Below, piece after piece: positions 29,370-35,846 of a DNA stretch of 64,000 bases; the stretch's first letter is position 1; each line of letters starts with the position of its first letter. Source of the stretch: an uncultured Pelagibacteraceae bacterium (GTDB lineage: Bacteria; Pseudomonadota; Alphaproteobacteria; Pelagibacterales; Pelagibacteraceae); assembly GCA_902539235.1 (NCBI GenBank), contig CACBIC010000004.1:3153-67152 (forward strand), in the 5' to 3' direction. The translations under genes and the position numbers were made by a program. The notes beneath the pieces are model-generated. The model was not told the origin of the DNA. It worked only from the letters and a program-made list of their open reading frames with translations, and did not search any database.

Positions 29370-30377
29370 ATGAATATACAAATCAAAACTGTTTTAAAAA
29401 ATATAGTATTAGTTTTTTTTTCACTGTGCTTTGCAATTTTTTTCATAGAGGTAATATTGAGAATAACTGGCTCCACTCCAAAAAAATATTTAGATATCTC
29501 AAAAAACGAGCCAGTCACAAATGAAAAAAATGAAACTTTGGGTTGGTCACCAATAATAGGAATTCATAATTTTAAACCATGGGCTGAAAATGGAAAGAAC
29601 ACTGTGTTAACTTTTAATAATGATACAAGTCGATTTATAAGTGACCAGAAAGAAAATCTAGAAAAAATAGTTTTTGTTGGTGGTTCAATTACAAATGGCT
29701 GGGCTGTTAGTGACAATGAAACTTTTCCCTACCTATTGCAAAAAAAGTACAAAAATTTTAAAGTTTACAACTTTGCTGTAGGGGGATACGGAGGCTACCA
29801 ATCTTTACTTAATCTTGAAAAAATATATAAAAAAAAAGAAAATATAAAATTTGTAATTTATGGTTTTATTCCGCATCATGAAGTAAGAAATGTTGCAGCA
29901 GGCTCCTGGTTATATCTTTTAAATTACGTATCTAAAAGAGGGGTTGTTAATTTACCTTATGCTTCATTAGACAAAAACGGAAAGCTTGTTCATCACGCTC
30001 CAGATAAATTAATTAAAATGCCACTCAGTGAAAAATTAGCTATCTCAGCAAAAATCGAAAAAAAAATTATGAAATTAAAGTCTTTTAAGAGAGAAAAAAG
30101 ACAGACTGAAATTTCTTTAGCAATTATAAATGAAATGAATGTTCTTTCAAAAGAAAACAATAGTAAATTTATTTTACTAATTTTAAAAGATTTTGGTGAT
30201 AGAAGAAAGAAAGCCTATAATGAATTTTTAAAAAAAAACGATATACATAACATTAATTGTTTTTTATCTTCTGATAAAAAATATCAAGTGCCAGGCGAAG
30301 GACATCCAAATGAGATTTCACATCAGCTTATTAGTGAATGTGTTTTTAAAAAATTAAAAAATCAAAATTTAATGTAA
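29370..30377 (+). CDS. Membrane-anchored SGNH/GDSL hydrolase-like protein
   Basis: N-terminal TM helix. Block I FVGGSITNG, block II NFAVGGYG, block V GEGHPN. Confidence 0.75.
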   Translation: MNIQIKTVLKNIVLVFFSLCFAIFFIEVILRITGSTPKKYLDISKNEPVTNEKNETLGWSPIIGIHNFKPWAENGKNTVLTFNNDTSRFISDQKENLEKIVFVGGSITNGWAVSDNETFPYLLQKKYKNFKVYNFAVGGYGGYQSLLNLEKIYKKKENIKFVIYGFIPHHEVRNVAAGSWLYLLNYVSKRGVVNLPYASLDKNGKLVHHAPDKLIKMPLSEKLAISAKIEKKIMKLKSFKREKRQTEISLAIINEMNVLSKENNSKFILLILKDFGDRRKKAYNEFLKKNDIHNINCFLSSDKKYQVPGEGHPNEISHQLISECVFKKLKNQNLM

Positions 30378-30381
30378 TCTT

Positions 30382-30795
30382 ATGAATTATTGGCTTTTAA
30401 AATCTGAACCTTACGTTTGGTCTATAGATGATCAAATAAAGGCTGGTGATAAAGGGATTGCTTGGGATGGTGTTAGAAATTACCAAGCTGCCAATAACTT
30501 AAAAAAAATGAAAGAAGGAGATCTGTGTTTTTTTTACCATTCTAATTTAGGAAAAGAAATTGTAGGCACAGTTAAAGTTACAAAAGCTGCTTTTCTAGAT
30601 AAAACCGACAAAAAAAAGAGATTTGTGGCTGTTCAGGTTAGGTTTGAAAAAAAATTAAAAGTGCCAATTTCTTTGGAAAAAATTAAAAAAAACAAGACAA
30701 TTTCTCATTTACCGTTAATCAAACAAAGCAGATTGTCTGTAATGCCTATAGATTTTAAAAGCTGGAAAATTATTTGTAAGATGGGTAAAATATAG
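30382..30795 (+). CDS. EVE domain protein
   Basis: YWLLKSEP, WDGVRNYQA, FFYHS, SRLSVMP. Confidence 0.93.
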   Translation: MNYWLLKSEPYVWSIDDQIKAGDKGIAWDGVRNYQAANNLKKMKEGDLCFFYHSNLGKEIVGTVKVTKAAFLDKTDKKKRFVAVQVRFEKKLKVPISLEKIKKNKTISHLPLIKQSRLSVMPIDFKSWKIICKMGKI

Positions 30796-30813
30796 AAAAA
30801 TTTAGAGGTATTT

Positions 30814-32940
30814 GTGGCTAAAAAGAAAAAAAGAAAAAAGAAAAAGTCAAAAATTAAAAGAAAAACTAGAAAGAGATTAAAAAAAACTAAAATTTCTAGA
30901 AAAAAAACTAGAAAAACAAAAAAATCTAGAAGAAAAAAGAAATCTAGAAAAAAAATAAGAAAAATAAATTTTAAAGCACCTACTTACTCAAAAGATAGTG
31001 ATGGAAATCCAATTATTAAAGTATCTGATAGTTGGGCAAACCACGCTTACGTTAATGAATCAAAATATAAAAAGAAATACAAGCTCTCTATTAAGGAAAA
31101 TGATAAATTTTGGTCTAAAGAAGGTAAAAGAATTACTTGGATCAAGAAATACACAAAAATTAAAGATGTAAAATACAGCAAAGATGAGGTTAAAATAAAA
31201 TGGTTTTATGATGGAACGTTAAATGCATCAGCTAACTGTATTGATAGACATCTTAAAAAGAATCCGAGTAAAACAGCAATCATTTGGGTTGGAGACGATC
31301 CTGCAGATACAAAAAAGATATCTTATAAAGAACTACACCAAAATGTTTGTAAGGCTGCTAATGGATTGAAAAGTTTAGGTATTCAAAAAGGTGACAGAGT
31401 AACAATTTATCTTACTATGATACCAGAATTAGCCTACATAATGTTGGCCTGTGCAAGAATAGGTGCAGTACACTCAATCATTTTTGGTGGATTTTCGCCC
31501 GACTCGATTGCAACGAGAATTACAGATTGTGAATCTGAATACTTAATTACTGCAGACGAAGGAGTTAGAGGAGGAAAAATTATCCCATTAAAAAAAATTG
31601 CAGACGAAGCTTTAGATCAATGTCCAAGTGTTAAAAAATGTGTAGTCGTTGAAAGAACTGGAAATCAAGTAAATTGGAATAATGAAAGAGATGTTTCTTA
31701 TAAGGAATTAATTTCTTCAGTGCCTGCAAAATGTGAACCTGAAGAAATGAACGCAGAGGACCCGCTATTTATACTTTACACTTCGGGATCTACCGGAAAA
31801 CCAAAAGGTGTTCTTCATACCACTGGTGGCTACATGGTCTACGCATCTATGACTCATCAATATATTTTTGATTATAAAACAAATGATATTTATTGGTGTA
31901 CTGCAGATATTGGCTGGGTAACAGGGCACAGCTATATTATATATGGACCCCTTTCTAATGGTGCCACAACTATAATGTTTGAAGGGATACCAAATTATCC
32001 AGATAGTTCTAGATGGTGGCAAATAGTTGATAAGTACAAAGTAAATATTTTTTATACTGCTCCAACGGCGATCAGAGCTTTGATGAGAGAGGGAGATAAG
32101 CCGGTAAAAAAAACTAGCAGAAAATCTTTAAAATTATTAGGAACAGTTGGAGAGCCTATAAATCCAGAAGCTTGGATGTGGTATTACAAGACTGTAGGAG
32201 AATCAAGATGTCCAATAGTTGATACCTGGTGGCAGACAGAAACGGGAGGAATTTTGATTGCACCTCAACCTGGAGCAATAGATTTAAAACCTGGATCAGC
32301 TACGAAGCCTTTTTACGGAATAAAACCTGTTTTGGTCGATAAAGACGGTAAAGTAATAAAAGGAGAAGGTAAAGGAAGATTGTGCATGGCTTCTTCATGG
32401 CCAGGTCAAATGAGAACGGTGTATGGAGATCACCAAAGATTTATAGACACTTATTTTTCTCAGTTTGATGGAAAATACTTTACTGGGGATGGCTGCCGAA
32501 GAGATAAAGATGGTTATTATTGGATTACAGGTAGAGTTGACGATGTTATTATTGTTTCTGGACACAATCTTGGAACGGCTGAAATAGAAAGTGCATTCGT
32601 TGCACATCCAAAAGTTGCTGAAGCTGCTGTAGTGGGATTCCCTCACAGCATTAAAGGGAATGGATTATATTGTTATGTAACTTTAAATGCTGGTGAAAAT
32701 CCGACAGGAGATTTGGAAAGAGACCTTAAACTTTGGGTGAGAAAACAAATTGGTCCAATAGCAACTCCAGATGTAATTCAATTTGCTCCAGGATTGCCAA
32801 AAACTAGATCTGGAAAAATTATGAGAAGAATATTAAGAAAAATTGCTGCTAATGAACCTGATAATTTAGGCGACACTACCACTTTAGCAGATCCTAGTGT
32901 TGTAACATCACTTGTAGAAAATAGACAAAATAAGGGCTAA
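30814..32940 (+). CDS. acs: Acetyl-CoA synthetase with N-terminal Lys/Arg-rich extension
   Basis: [21 protein letters not shown], acetylation motif PKTRSGK. GTG start preceded by AGAGGT. Confidence 0.96.
30820..30963 (+). repeat. Low-complexity A-rich imperfect repeats encoding the K/R tail
   Basis: Five A-flanked CTAGA units (ACTAGA/TCTAGA) within poly-A tracts. Confidence 0.7.
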
Positions 32941-33578
32941 TTAAATTTTAAGTTTTTCGTTAATTTTTTAAACTCATCTTTCATTAAGCCCCACTTTAAG
33001 TGGATAGAGTTTAAAACAATCTTTTTATCTAGTGATTTTAATTCGTCAGCGATAGGTGACCAATAGTATAAAGCTTGACCACTTTCTTTAAACGGTTCGT
33101 TTAAGTGATAATTCGAAAAATTTACTTTGTCTAATCTTTCTAAAAAATGTTTTTTACCTCTATCAAAAATTTCATCACTTAAACCATTGTTTTTTTCATT
33201 TTCTAAAATATTTAAAAAGATTTCCTTGCAATCATTATCTTTTAAGTTTTTTTCTGAGATAAGATAAGAGAAAATGTAAAAAGCGCAATCAGCTAATGCA
33301 ACCACATAGATATTCCATTTTGCAAGATTGATTGACTTTAAAAACCTTTCATCCTCCATCATGGCAATATATTTTACTCCAATTCTAGTTTTTAAATAAC
33401 CGTAGAGAGTTGTTTGAGTAACATGAGCAGATCTCTCTTGAATAAAATTTTCTAGATCCTTTTTTGATTTTATGCTTTTAAATAAACCAGAAATTTTCCA
33501 AATCGGAATTACATATTCCCAAACGCTAATTAGAGTGGTTCTAAGAGTGTTTCGCAGTTTATTTAGATTCAATTTCAC
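32937..33578 (-). CDS. Hypothetical protein
   Basis: 213-aa ORF filling the gap convergent with acs. Contains [26 protein letters not shown] start uncertain. Confidence 0.75.
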
Positions 33579-33632
33579 GTTGTATTTAAAAAACCCTTTA
33601 TTTACTTGTCTTATAGCATTTCAATTTGGTTT

Positions 33633-33729
33633 TGGGGTCCTTTTTTCTCTTTTAATTCAACTCATAATCAGTATGCTCCCCAGCAATAAGAGTACTTTTT
33701 ACGTAAAAAGTTAAAAATAAATAGGGGGA
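33633..33729 (+). promoter_or_regulatory. Structured leader/operator region ahead of DUF4212-symporter
   Basis: TGGGG (33633-37), CTCCCCA (33676-82), 18-bp palindrome ACTTTTTACGTAAAAAGT (33694-711), SD AGGGGGA (33723-29). Confidence 0.45.
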
Positions 33730-33732
33730 AAT

Positions 33733-33990
33733 ATGTCAAATAAAGACGCATATTGGAATAAGACCAAAAACCATATGATAGTAACATTGGTTCTTTGGGC
33801 TTTCTTCTCATTAGTGATCTTCATGTTTGGTTCAGAACTGAACACGATGTCTTTTCTTGGCTATCCATTAGCATATTACATGACTGCGCAAGGTTCACTT
33901 CTTGCCTTTGTGATAATTTTGTTTTGGACTGCAAATAAACAAGAAAAAATCGACGAAGAACATGGTTTCTCAGAAAGAGAGGATGACTAA
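33733..33990 (+). CDS. DUF4212 small membrane partner of Na+:solute symporter
   Basis: YWNKT, GYPLAYYMTAQGS, IDEEHG. Stop overlaps the symporter start (TAATG). Confidence 0.88.
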   Translation: MSNKDAYWNKTKNHMIVTLVLWAFFSLVIFMFGSELNTMSFLGYPLAYYMTAQGSLLAFVIILFWTANKQEKIDEEHGFSEREDD

Positions 33991-35846
33991 TGTTTAAAGG
34001 AGATTTTATACAAAACCTTCCTAAAATATATGGTACCTACACTGGTGGCTTTATAGTGTTCATCATTTTGATGGCATTAGCAGAGCAAGCAGGTGTGTCA
34101 GCTAAAAACATCGGAGTGATGTTCGTGGCTTTCACGGTATTGATTTATGCCTTAATCGGTTATTTATCAAGAACCATTCAAGTAGATGCCTACTATGTTG
34201 CAGGAAGACAAGTGCCAACCGTGTTTAACGGAATGGCAACAGCAGCTGACTGGATGTCAGGTGCATCATTCGTAGCTTTAGCGGGTGGAGTTTACTTTGG
34301 TGGCTATACTTATATGGCCTTCTTAGTAGGTTGGACAGGTGGATACGTACTTGTTGCAACTCTAATGGCTCCGTACCTAAGAAAGTTTGGATGTTACACA
34401 GTTCCTGATTTTATCGGAACACGATACGGTGGTAATGCGGTGAGAGCTGCATCAGTATTCGTGCTTTTCATAGCATCATTTACTTACGTAACAGCACAAA
34501 TTAATGCTACGGGAACAATTGCTTCTAGAGCTCTTGGAATTCCGTTCGAAGCGGGTGTATGGGTAGGATTAATAAGTATCCTTATCTGTTCAATGCTTGG
34601 TGGAATGAGAGCCGTAACTTGGACACAGGTTGCTCAGTACATTGTATTAATCATCGCATACTTAATACCAGTATTCTGGATTAGTTCTAACGTAGGTGGA
34701 GGAATTTTCCCTCACTTAATGTTAGGTGATGAAGTTGCAAGACTTGGCGAACTTGAACAACAATTTGGACTAGTTAAAAACAGCGCCGCAGATATGAAAG
34801 CAGCTGGGGTACCAGGAGGATTGAAATATATCTCTGGAACTCACTCTGGAGTACCTGAAGGTGGAATGGCTGTCTGGAAATACTTATCGTTAGCGATTTG
34901 TATGATGGTGGGAACTGCATCGTTACCTCATATCTTAATGAGATACTTTACAACTCCTACAGTAAGAGCAGCAAGAAAATCAGTAGCTTGGTCGCTATTC
35001 TTTATTTTCTTACTTTACTCTTCAGCGCCTATGTTAGCGACATTGTCTAAATTAGCATTGATGGATCCAAATCTACCAACTGGAATTATCGGAAAATCTA
35101 TTTCTGAAGTTCAGTCGATAGAGTGGGTACAAAGATGGTCTGAAGTTAAACAAGTATTTATCGCAGACTTTAATGGTGACGGAATACTTCAGTTGAACGA
35201 ATGGTTCATGAGAGGTGACGTTGTAGTATTAGCTACTCCAGAAGTAGCGGGTCTACCGTTCGTAATCTCAGGACTAGTGTTTGCTGGTGGTATGGCTGCT
35301 GCCATGTCAACTGCCGATGGATTGGTTCTTGCGATCTCAAATGCGTTATCACACGACATTTACTACAAGATCATAAATCCAAAAGCGGAAACTGCTAAAA
35401 GACTATTAGTTGCTCGTACACTTCTAGTAATAATCGGAGCTGCTGGTGCTTACATAGCCTCTTTCAGGCTAACAAGTATCTTAGGTTCGGTTGCTTGGGC
35501 ATTCGACTTTGCAATGTCAGGTTTATTCTTCCCACTTGTACTTGGTGTATGGTGGAAGAGAGCTACTAGAGAAGGTGCAATCGCTGGTATATTGGCGGGA
35601 ATTATTTCAGGAACAGTTTACTTAACGTGGGTGTTCCCTAAATTCTCAGTTCCAATATGGGGCGGTGTAAATACTCCTTTCTTAGGTATTGACCACCTAA
35701 GATTTGGTTTAATTGGAGCACCAATTTGTTTAGTTGTAATGGTGGTAGTCAGTTTAATGACTAAAGAACCAAGTCCAGCTACACAAAAATTAGTAGACGA
35801 TACAAGAATACCGACAGGTAAGGCTATTCTTGGTAAGCAACACTAA
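33990..35846 (+). CDS. Sodium:solute symporter, ActP-like (VC_2705 subfamily)
   Basis: YYVAGR, NGMATAADWMSGAS, APYLRKFG, GTASLPHILMRYFT, AAAMSTADG. Confidence 0.93.
   Translation: MFKGDFIQNLPKIYGTYTGGFIVFIILMALAEQAGVSAKNIGVMFVAFTVLIYALIGYLSRTIQVDAYYVAGRQVPTVFNGMATAADWMSGASFVALAGGVYFGGYTYMAFLVGWTGGYVLVATLMAPYLRKFGCYTVPDFIGTRYGGNAVRAASVFVLFIASFTYVTAQINATGTIASRALGIPFEAGVWVGLISILICSMLGGMRAVTWTQVAQYIVLIIAYLIPVFWISSNVGGGIFPHLMLGDEVARLGELEQQFGLVKNSAADMKAAGVPGGLKYISGTHSGVPEGGMAVWKYLSLAICMMVGTASLPHILMRYFTTPTVRAARKSVAWSLFFIFLLYSSAPMLATLSKLALMDPNLPTGIIGKSISEVQSIEWVQRWSEVKQVFIADFNGDGILQLNEWFMRGDVVVLATPEVAGLPFVISGLVFAGGMAAAMSTADGLVLAISNALSHDIYYKIINPKAETAKRLLVARTLLVIIGAAGAYIASFRLTSILGSVAWAFDFAMSGLFFPLVLGVWWKRATREGAIAGILAGIISGTVYLTWVFPKFSVPIWGGVNTPFLGIDHLRFGLIGAPICLVVMVVVSLMTKEPSPATQKLVDDTRIPTGKAILGKQH

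Follow-up and report, generated by a model that had tools for sequence, protein, structure and literature searches.

A lysine-rich N-terminal tail on the acetate-CoA ligase of most Pelagibacteraceae: conserved charge and a possible electrostatic tether

Why should an enzyme of central metabolism begin with fifty residues that carry a net charge of +36? The question is raised by acs, the gene for an acetate-CoA ligase (acetyl-CoA synthetase, Acs) at 30814-32940 on the forward strand of the window, that is, the whole stretch of 64,000 nucleotides of contig CACBIC010000004.1 that was analysed. The DNA comes from an uncultured bacterium of the Pelagibacteraceae (SAR11), and the source assembly is 0.81 Mb long, 71% complete and 30% G+C. 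The orthologs of related genomes give the first part of the answer, as the polybasic tail is a trait of most Pelagibacteraceae and not a peculiarity of one genome. The further parts, namely whether the tail is made, what is conserved in it and what it may do, are taken up below.

The composition of the tail was analysed at the locus. The open reading frame (ORF) encodes 708 residues, of which codons 1-50 (30814-30963, forward strand) specify 26 K, 10 R, 4 S, 4 T, 3 I and one each of V, A and L. No D or E occurs among these fifty residues and the first acidic residue is D61. A sequence-only reading of this DNA had described a polybasic stretch of fifty residues fused in frame to an intact Acs, and both halves of that description were confirmed, as the composition was reproduced and the full Acs domain set follows. 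Codons 1-55 contain AAA 22 times, AGA ten times and AAG five times, and the longest A-run in the tail is 8. The program TRF found imperfect repeats, including an 18-nt unit, AAAAAAATCTAGAAAAAA, in 3.1 copies at 30900-30955 (forward strand), which encodes (S)RKK units and agrees with the imperfect (S/T)RK repeats that the same reading had noted. The AlphaFold2 model built from a 28-sequence alignment assigned residues 1-58 a pLDDT of about 28-32 and no secondary structure, the whole model being poor (mean pLDDT 56.7), and the tail is thus annotated from its composition, its predicted disorder and the length-variable homologous tails in 138 of 157 loci. Residues 51-66 (30964-31011, forward strand) form a linker, since the NF001208 match begins at residue 67 and tail-less orthologs begin at the equivalent of about residues 64-66.

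The part that follows the linker, residues 67-708 with the stop codon (31012-32940, forward strand), is annotated as the acetate-CoA ligase core from Pfam and NCBIfam. The Pfam domains lie in the order seen in AcsA, with ACAS_N at residues 85-142 (31066-31239), AMP-binding at 144-528 (31243-32397) and AMP-binding_C at 590-668 (32581-32817), all on the forward strand. NF001208 matched residues 67-706 with 1065.9 bits (cut-off 657) and TIGR02188 matched residues 81-702 with 1013.7 bits (cut-off 724.95); the propionate-CoA ligase models scored under their cut-offs. The segments T323-G332 and K663-R672, including K668, were invariant in the 28-sequence alignment. These segments are taken to be the adenylation motif (T/S)SG(S/T)TGxPKG and the C-terminal catalytic lysine of the SGK motif (A10), and K668 presumably corresponds to the site of regulatory acetylation in enteric Acs. 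Judged by these matches, the protein is a member of the AcsA (acetate-CoA ligase, AMP-forming) family. Pfam gave no match over residues 1-84, and no H1 or protamine family was among the matches there.

The start codon decides whether such a tail is made. The nearest in-frame stop on the 5' side lies at 30793, no start codon occurs between it and 30814, and the GTG at 30814-30816 (forward strand) is the sole ATG, GTG or TTG between that stop and codon 202. No in-frame ATG, GTG, TTG or CTG was found in codons 2-150, which hold ATT, ATA and ATC only, and no Shine-Dalgarno-like sequence was found before the in-frame ATT and ATA codons of acs. The next methionine, M202, lies within the AMP-binding domain, deep in the catalytic part as had been stated before. 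A Shine-Dalgarno-like AGAGG stands at 30804-30808 (forward strand), 5 nt before the GTG, which bears out the earlier call of a GTG start with a good ribosome-binding site; AGGAG- or GGGG-type motifs occupy the equivalent place in relatives of the genus, and across the family such motifs precede 52 of 123 tail-bearing starts. The remaining two forward frames across the tail contain 3 and 9 stops, and the probability that 50 codons stay open in random sequence of the same base composition is about 0.014. The conserved start was found to be the single in-frame ATG, GTG or TTG ahead of the core in 94 of 126 long-tail loci. With the sole usable start lying upstream, the tail is very probably translated, as the sequence-only reading had supposed.

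The expression data point in the same direction. RNA libraries of two studies yielded contigs over the tail region, and one of 160 nt spans 30860-31008 with one mismatch and crosses the boundary between tail and linker. This cover lends weak support to expression, because DNA may be present in such libraries and the contigs show no transcript ends, level or strand. In the main text of two Pelagibacter proteome papers Acs is unmentioned. The tail is also easily overlooked. For most loci the best tblastn segment excluded its low-complexity sequence, the matches beginning at about residue 50-67, and a recombinant SAR11 Acs built from a trimmed start would lack it.

The distribution of the tail among relatives was examined in stages. 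In a first sample of 41 genomes, the full-length orthologs of the window's genus and of the sister family f2 were read. All 17 of the full-length orthologs first read from the genus carry a polybasic N-terminal extension; two further loci run off their contigs and one more has a short tail. The tail is found in 0 of 10 loci of the sister family, all ten of which start MSENE(K/I)F. A draw of 201 genomes from the family gave an ortholog at E <= 1e-200 in 176 (genome G107 is counted only in this tally), and the N-termini of 40 further loci, picked across genera, were read. Tails were present in genera g1, g5, g7, g9, g10, g11, g12, g13, g15 and g22, g11 being a genus with many closed genomes of 1.2-1.5 Mb, and were found in 0 of 4 loci of g17 and 0 of 4 of g20. 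To these were added 80 further loci from the nearest Pelagibacteraceae single-cell genomes, metagenome-assembled genomes and Candidatus Pelagibacter isolates.

Altogether 172 loci were considered and 157 were usable, as the other 15 ran off the contig or were missed by the motif. The usable loci comprise 126 with a long tail, by which the N-terminus exceeds the tail-less form by at least about 23 residues, 12 with short polybasic stretches of the type MPKKKKVKKKVISKKPKE, 18 without a tail and one ambiguous case (L117); the 18 tail-less loci are those of genera g17 and g20 and of the sister family. The alignment of SAR11 Acs N-termini that had been proposed as a check was therefore positive for tails of variable length and conserved charge. 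The reading frame was found intact, as had been claimed, since no ortholog read has a frameshift in the tail and the stops flagged in the rows that were checked (L015, L016) lie upstream of the start.

Outside the family the picture is different. Among the 150 best cluster representatives (50% identity clusters) of Acs, none has a K-rich N-terminal window, and 4 of the 150 have internal R-rich windows of a different kind. In the class sample of 41 genomes, 27 other genomes gave an Acs match, which starts at query residue 49 or later in 26; the earlier-starting match (residue 28) is a read-through of upstream sequence, because two stops lie inside it. The statement that canonical Acs lacks such a tail is in accordance with both results. 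The three Acs paralogues of this genome are also without a tail.

The conserved properties of the tails were then compared. Among 133 unique tails the start follows the consensus M/V-P/A-K-K/R-K-K-K-K: residue 1 is M in 78, V in 49 and L in 6, residue 2 is P in 59 and A in 52 (P or A in 111 of 133), and residues 3-8 are K or R in the great majority. Beyond the start, sequence and length vary freely, partly through gain and loss of tandem repeats, and in-frame arrays such as (RRVKKSRKKT)x5 in L010, (KKKKVSKKKKSVKKA)x5 in L081 and (VTRKVKSKKK)x5 in L070 were observed. The polybasic parts of 122 unique tails measure 21-99 residues (median 47), with short forms down to about 12, and their net charge ranges from +12 to +60 (median +32). 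The 5899 residues of these 122 tails consist of K 52.8%, R 12.8%, S 10.6%, V 5.1%, T 4.0%, A 2.9%, P 1.9%, N 1.9%, L 1.6%, F 1.2% and W 0.0%, with 29 acidic residues in total (E 0.4%, 21; D 0.1%, 8), the K and R figures being inflated because the strict tail was delimited by K/R density, which affects the dearth of D and E and the excess of S less, and the counts being drawn from related sequences that are not independent. The corresponding values for the proteome of this genome are K 11.2%, R 3.3%, S 7.0%, N 6.6%, E 5.8% and D 4.9%. The ratio of R to E in the tails is 753:21 (36:1), a figure that does not follow from the way the tail was delimited and is telling for selection on charge because AGA for arginine and GAA for glutamate are each one A>G step from AAA. 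The coding strand of the tails is 60% A and 17% T across deep divergence, and this skew speaks for selection because AT-biased drift would erase it. With charge kept, D and E almost excluded and the start conserved, the tail appears to be under selection, as had been suggested from the single sequence, and it is likely that the selection acts on charge and not on sequence.

The tetranucleotide CTAG occurs at 11 per kb in the tails against 2 per kb in the genome, with five copies in the window's tail and at least three in 35 of 122 tails. As a feature of its own this enrichment was rejected, for it is due to the S/T-R codon pairs TCT-AGA and ACT-AGA and, not being universal, comes mainly from one genus.

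The same data bear on a competing explanation, in which the tail is an extension that became trapped and is close to neutral: a start further upstream, within an A-rich leader, would have been captured and the old start lost, the stretch would since have needed no more than to remain open and do no harm, and the composition would follow from AT-biased mutation and replication slippage. The genome is 30% GC, tail length varies about eight-fold, the sequence is barely conserved, and the tandem repeats point to replication slippage; moreover, loss of the tail needs a new start codon, because most loci are without an alternative start. However, drift under AT bias should leave A and T at similar levels and make N, I, F, E and Y frequent, against which stand the 60% A and 17% T of the coding strand, the low share of N (1.9%; proteome 6.6%) and an excess of R over E of 36:1. 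Serine is enriched though its codons are two steps from AAA, and the A-runs are shorter than in synonymous shuffles. Such a tail occurs in 2 of 2464 ORFs of this equally AT-rich genome, and the AT-rich sister family is without it. Two origins of the tail are probable. The side chains of K and R contain additional nitrogen, while the proteomes of open-ocean organisms are described as reduced in nitrogen in the available text of PMC3246230. A trapped neutral extension is accordingly rated as unlikely, with a modest chance of being right.

The coding of the lysines was analysed for the A-runs that so many AAA codons could produce. The longest A-run per tail averages 9.1 (range 7-12, 122 tails), compared with an expected 12.4 when the own Lys codons of each tail are shuffled among its Lys positions and 13.5 under genome codon usage, and the observed value lies below expectation in 109 of 122 tails. 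The maximum is at most 10 in 107 of 122 tails and 15 reach 11 or 12, while AAG makes up 21% of the Lys codons in tails against 14% genome-wide. Koutmou et al (2015, PMC4363877), in the portion of the article available, report for E. coli that A11 gives robust ribosome sliding and that A9 and A10 give little; a slippery poly(A) track is there set at 11 or more consecutive A in coding sequence, and the window's tail with its longest run of 8 falls short of it. The poly(A) tracks of that work likewise have many consecutive Lys codons, mostly AAA, at the start of the ORF; unlike them, the Acs tails are interrupted by AAG, AGA and S, T or V codons, and their A-runs stay shorter than A11 (PMC4363877). 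Since the A-runs are shorter than in the shuffles and mostly below A11, a faithful reading of the tail seems favoured and slippage as its purpose is argued against, so that the proposal of translation being tuned by poly-Lys/poly-A slippage is not sustained.

The coding also speaks to the idea of a translational throttle, in which the Lys and Arg codons at the 5' end slow early elongation, by the cationic nascent chain and the AAA codons, and so set the output of Acs, the peptide itself being incidental. The position of the tail at the very start of the ORF would suit this, and cationic nascent peptides slow ribosomes according to the accessible part of PMC9207662. A short motif would be enough for the purpose, though many tails are long, and R, S and V spacers or a near-exclusion of D and E over up to 99 residues would not be needed; the coding, with A-runs of at most 10 in most tails and AAG enriched, avoids the slippery configuration. 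The throttle is therefore considered quite improbable.

The history of the trait was read from 37 Acs cores, stripped of their tails, in a maximum-likelihood tree. The family forms one clade (100/100) with two branches. The first, comprising g7, g12, g11/g9/g22, g10, g5 and g1, is tail-bearing throughout; in the second, g17 (no tail) is followed by g20 (no tail) as sister to g13 and g15 (tails). This topology requires the tail to have been gained or lost at least twice, and an approximately unbiased test, run after the tree had been seen, rejected monophyly of the tail-bearing cores (log-likelihood difference 42.2, p 0.003). Two gains are most parsimonious because the sister family and the other Alphaproteobacteria outside are tail-less; a single gain followed by two losses, or an exchange of the 5' end among lineages by recombination, are possible alternatives.

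Two loci stand apart in this comparison. The locus L020 (G014:C9) is binned in the window's genus, while its Acs groups with g15, is 70% identical to that of the window and has a g15-type repeat tail; transfer or bin contamination therefore occurs. In L093 (G176:C7:5700-7200) a 984-aa open frame runs from the C-terminal half of one Acs through a short K-rich stretch into a second Acs N-terminus, which looks like an assembly artefact or a tandem duplication.

The charge of the tail was set against that of the whole proteome. A scan of 2464 ORFs of at least 40 aa found three with 14 or more K/R in a 25-residue window, namely Acs (19/25), an orphan 403-aa protein (18/25, N-terminal) and, weakly, RNase E/G (14/25, C-terminal). 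The search for other K/R-tailed proteins, which had been named as a check, thus gave one strong tail besides Acs in this 71%-complete genome, that of the orphan. Net charge across the proteome has a median of +10 and is positive for 87% of the ORFs that reach 200 aa. With +16 the Acs core lies at the 48th percentile; the cores of one clade range from +12 to +27, and those of the sister family lie near -20. A core charge specially adapted in Acs was considered and rejected, the whole proteome being equally basic. Because the whole proteome is basic, it is the concentration of charge and not its sign that is special to the Acs tail. Tail and core charge are negatively correlated (Spearman -0.65, 123 proteins, uncorrected for phylogeny) while total charge still rises with tail length, a hint that would fit selection on overall charge.

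The orphan (loci L210-L215), encoded outside the window at C3:33282-34490 (forward strand) of the same genome (G000), has an N-terminal polybasic tail of about 60 residues, a coiled-coil-like middle rich in E and K, and a C-terminal domain. Neither Pfam nor NCBIfam gave a match to it. It turned up in 18 of 24 genomes from the window's genus and in 0 of 16 from the sister family.

What such a concentrated charge might do is answered here by a proposed mechanism. In it, an acetate-CoA ligase that is ordinary in all other respects would bear at its N-terminus a polycation, translated and intrinsically disordered, which would act as a nonspecific electrostatic tether holding Acs on abundant cellular polyanions. 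A flexible chain of +30 to +60 should attach to the polyanion that is most plentiful. Ribosomal and messenger RNA would come first among the partners, the nucleoid second and the anionic membrane third, the last rank being given because the tail is without a hydrophobic anchor. Such a tether would limit the diffusion of Acs and fix its position in a very small cell with its chemistry unchanged. The tail may also drive condensates, which the sequence-only reading had proposed beside tethering to DNA, RNA or membrane. Schavemaker et al (2017) observed, as far as the available text of PMC5726854 goes, that a +25 green fluorescent protein (GFP) in E. coli binds ribosomes and diffuses up to 100-fold more slowly; the basic proteomes of endosymbionts are called a conundrum in the same text, and the SAR11 proteome is itself basic. 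The full explanation, whose step from polycation to nucleic-acid tether is reached by analogy, is given about an even chance.

A related reading places the tether at the membrane: the polycation would sit on the anionic lipids of the inner membrane and keep Acs by the acetate permease, where acetate would be turned into acetyl-CoA on entry and so be trapped. Proteins are known to be directed to membranes by polybasic stretches. A DUF4212 and sodium:solute symporter (SSF) pair lies 0.8 kb downstream of acs at 33733-35846 (forward strand; 85 aa, DUF4212 E 1.4e-23, and 618 aa, SSF E 2.5e-50, both Pfam). We take this pair to be the arrangement of E. coli yjcH-actP, the acetate permease (acs-yjcH-actP), and it probably gives acs a context of acetate use. 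Against the membrane speak the lack of a hydrophobic or aromatic anchor (F 1.2%, W 0.0% and L 1.6% of the 5899 tail residues) and the presence of RNA and DNA as denser and more abundant polyanions; the +25 GFP went to ribosomes in E. coli (PMC5726854, available text). Docking at the membrane hence seems improbable.

The closeness of 26 lysines to an enzyme that makes acetyl-AMP and acetyl-CoA, together with the invariant K668, invites the thought that tail lysines serve as a decoy or sink for acetyl groups from these two compounds, or as a switch that loses charge as acetyl-CoA rises. HDAC-like genes were present in 5 of 5 SAR11 genomes. These genes do not track the tail, however, because the tail-less g17 and g20 carry them too, and a sirtuin was found in 0 of 5 SAR11 genomes. 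The ATP-grasp_5 matches were weak (21-33 bits) and no convincing Pat-type match was obtained; the three matches over the cut-off, in open frames of about 390 aa, are probably succinyl-CoA synthetase-like rather than Pat. Arginine, a fifth of the tail charge, cannot be acetylated. An acetylation role is rated very improbable, and the earlier proposal of an acetyl sink linked to nucleoid compaction finds no support, with no sirtuin found in these five genomes and with HDAC-like genes in tail-bearing and tail-less genomes alike. As a separate observation, an HDAC-like gene (PF00850) adjoins an Acs paralogue (26% identity to Acs) outside the window in the same genome (G000 C5:152-1957, forward strand, and C5:2166-2927, reverse strand), a pair which presumably resembles the AcuC-AcsA pairing of Bacillus.

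Polyphosphate had also been named as a partner, and the histone H1-like AlgP, which helps the even spacing of polyphosphate granules in Pseudomonas (PMC9239181, available text), would offer an analogy. The polyphosphate kinase models PPK1 (PF02503) and PPK2 (PF03976) each matched 0 of 5 SAR11 genomes, four of which are at least 99% complete, compared with 7 and 8 of 14 control genomes, respectively. This partner is therefore weakened and given a very low probability.

The preferred reading of a tail held on RNA or the nucleoid has to be weighed against several points that count against it. The cytoplasm of marine cells is salty. Higher ionic strength weakens electrostatic binding of this kind, and a disordered positive protein may bind less, according to the available text of the +25 GFP study (PMC5726854). 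In a cell whose proteome is basic throughout, a tail may add little extra binding, and a need for one in Acs alone is not obvious. Tail lengths spread between about 12 and about 99 residues without an evident threshold, which fits weak constraint too. Upkeep of the frame follows from the start lying upstream and is by itself no proof of a function of the peptide. Standard tryptic proteomes are silent on the tail because trypsin leaves fragments of one to four residues, and the AlphaFold2 model is too weak for a fold search or for docking of tail and core. The delimitation by K/R density and the relatedness of the tails, given above with the composition, lower the weight of those figures in the same direction.

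The significance of the tail lies in where it is found. No bacterial lineage in the sea is more abundant than SAR11, which is also the textbook example of a streamlined genome. Both sequence and nitrogen are spent on a tail whose 20-100 residues are two-thirds Lys and Arg. Most of the family nevertheless retains it on this one enzyme, and it seems to have been gained, or lost, more than once. Its upkeep at such cost argues for a real, hitherto undescribed benefit, tied to acetate assimilation or to the arrangement of enzymes in a small, RNA-dense cell. The boldest form of the idea is that SAR11 evolved, probably twice, a polylysine docking of Acs on the nucleoid or ribosomes, for which a small chance is seen. 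If true, acetyl-CoA would be made where it is consumed, or Acs would be partitioned with the chromosome at division, and the polybasic orphan with its coiled-coil-like middle could be part of this system as well. The ACSS2 of eukaryotes is recruited to chromatin, and the SAR11 enzyme would be its bacterial counterpart, an instance of spatial order encoded in charge within one of the smallest free-living cells. The observation also bears on how cells with basic proteomes avoid clogging their ribosomes, a matter raised in the available text of PMC5726854. The sequences have long been public; no published description of an Acs tail was found in the literature searched, and the feature seems to be undescribed.

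On the 5' side of acs, a gene of 137 aa with an EVE domain (Pfam, E 3.2e-42) lies at 30382-30795 (forward strand), 18 nt before the acs start, and the same neighbour precedes acs in relatives with and without the tail. Open-frame residues of the type AGK..RWV upstream of acs recur in loci of g1, g17 and g20, where the 3' end of the EVE gene, read in a different frame, would account for them. A fusion of the tail to this gene was considered and rejected, since the 20-26 open codons before the start in some relatives are that 3' end in a different frame, behind a stop. Downstream, a convergent ORF of 213 aa at 32937-33578 (reverse strand), with no Pfam or NCBIfam match, overlaps the acs stop with its end by 4 nt. 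Rfam gave no match at E <= 1 over 29500-34000, and within 30200-33700 neither promoter-like sites (16 against 13.9 in shuffles) nor terminator-like sites (2 against 1.6) were in excess.

The protein can finally be compared with known systems. It shares the domain set and the invariant motifs of canonical AcsA (TIGR02188/NF001208) and lies in an acetate-transporter-like neighbourhood; it differs by the additional 50-residue polycation and 16-residue linker before the point at which tail-less orthologs start. Protamines are Arg-dominated, and H1 tails consist of K with abundant A and P. The Acs tail has in common with protamines and the C-terminal domain of H1 the high positive charge density, the low complexity and the S/T-basic dipeptides. 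Unlike them it has no family match, a K:R ratio of about 4:1, scarce A and P and no globular H1 domain, and it falls outside both families because no model matches and the composition differs. The label of protamine- or histone-H1-like therefore held for the charge, and did not hold for family or for composition, which is K/S-rich and neither R-rich nor A/P-rich.

A closer likeness is offered by bacterial proteins with lysine-rich tails. The tails of AlgP and PhaF are built of short tandem repeats rich in A, P and K. These are not matched in Acs, where the repeats are of the K/R/S/V type, such as (S)RKK, RRVKKSRKKT and KKKKVSKKKKSVKKA, and A and P are scarce. In the available texts, K-rich tails tether PhaF to the nucleoid (PMC7590123), with which this protein interacts (PMC7590123, PMC3574117), and the FtsK of mycobacteria begins with a long extension that is positively charged and intrinsically disordered (PMC13277299). 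The engineered +25 GFP (PMC5726854, available text) differs in that its charge lies on the surface of a folded protein, the Acs tail being natural and flexible. PhaF, AlgP and FtsK also have a low-complexity, positive, disordered tail on a folded functional module, but they already act on DNA, granules or the divisome (available texts as cited for each), whereas the carrier here is a soluble enzyme of central metabolism. By analogy, and with no homology implied, the tail of Acs would work most like the Lys-rich disordered tails of PhaF, AlgP and FtsK.

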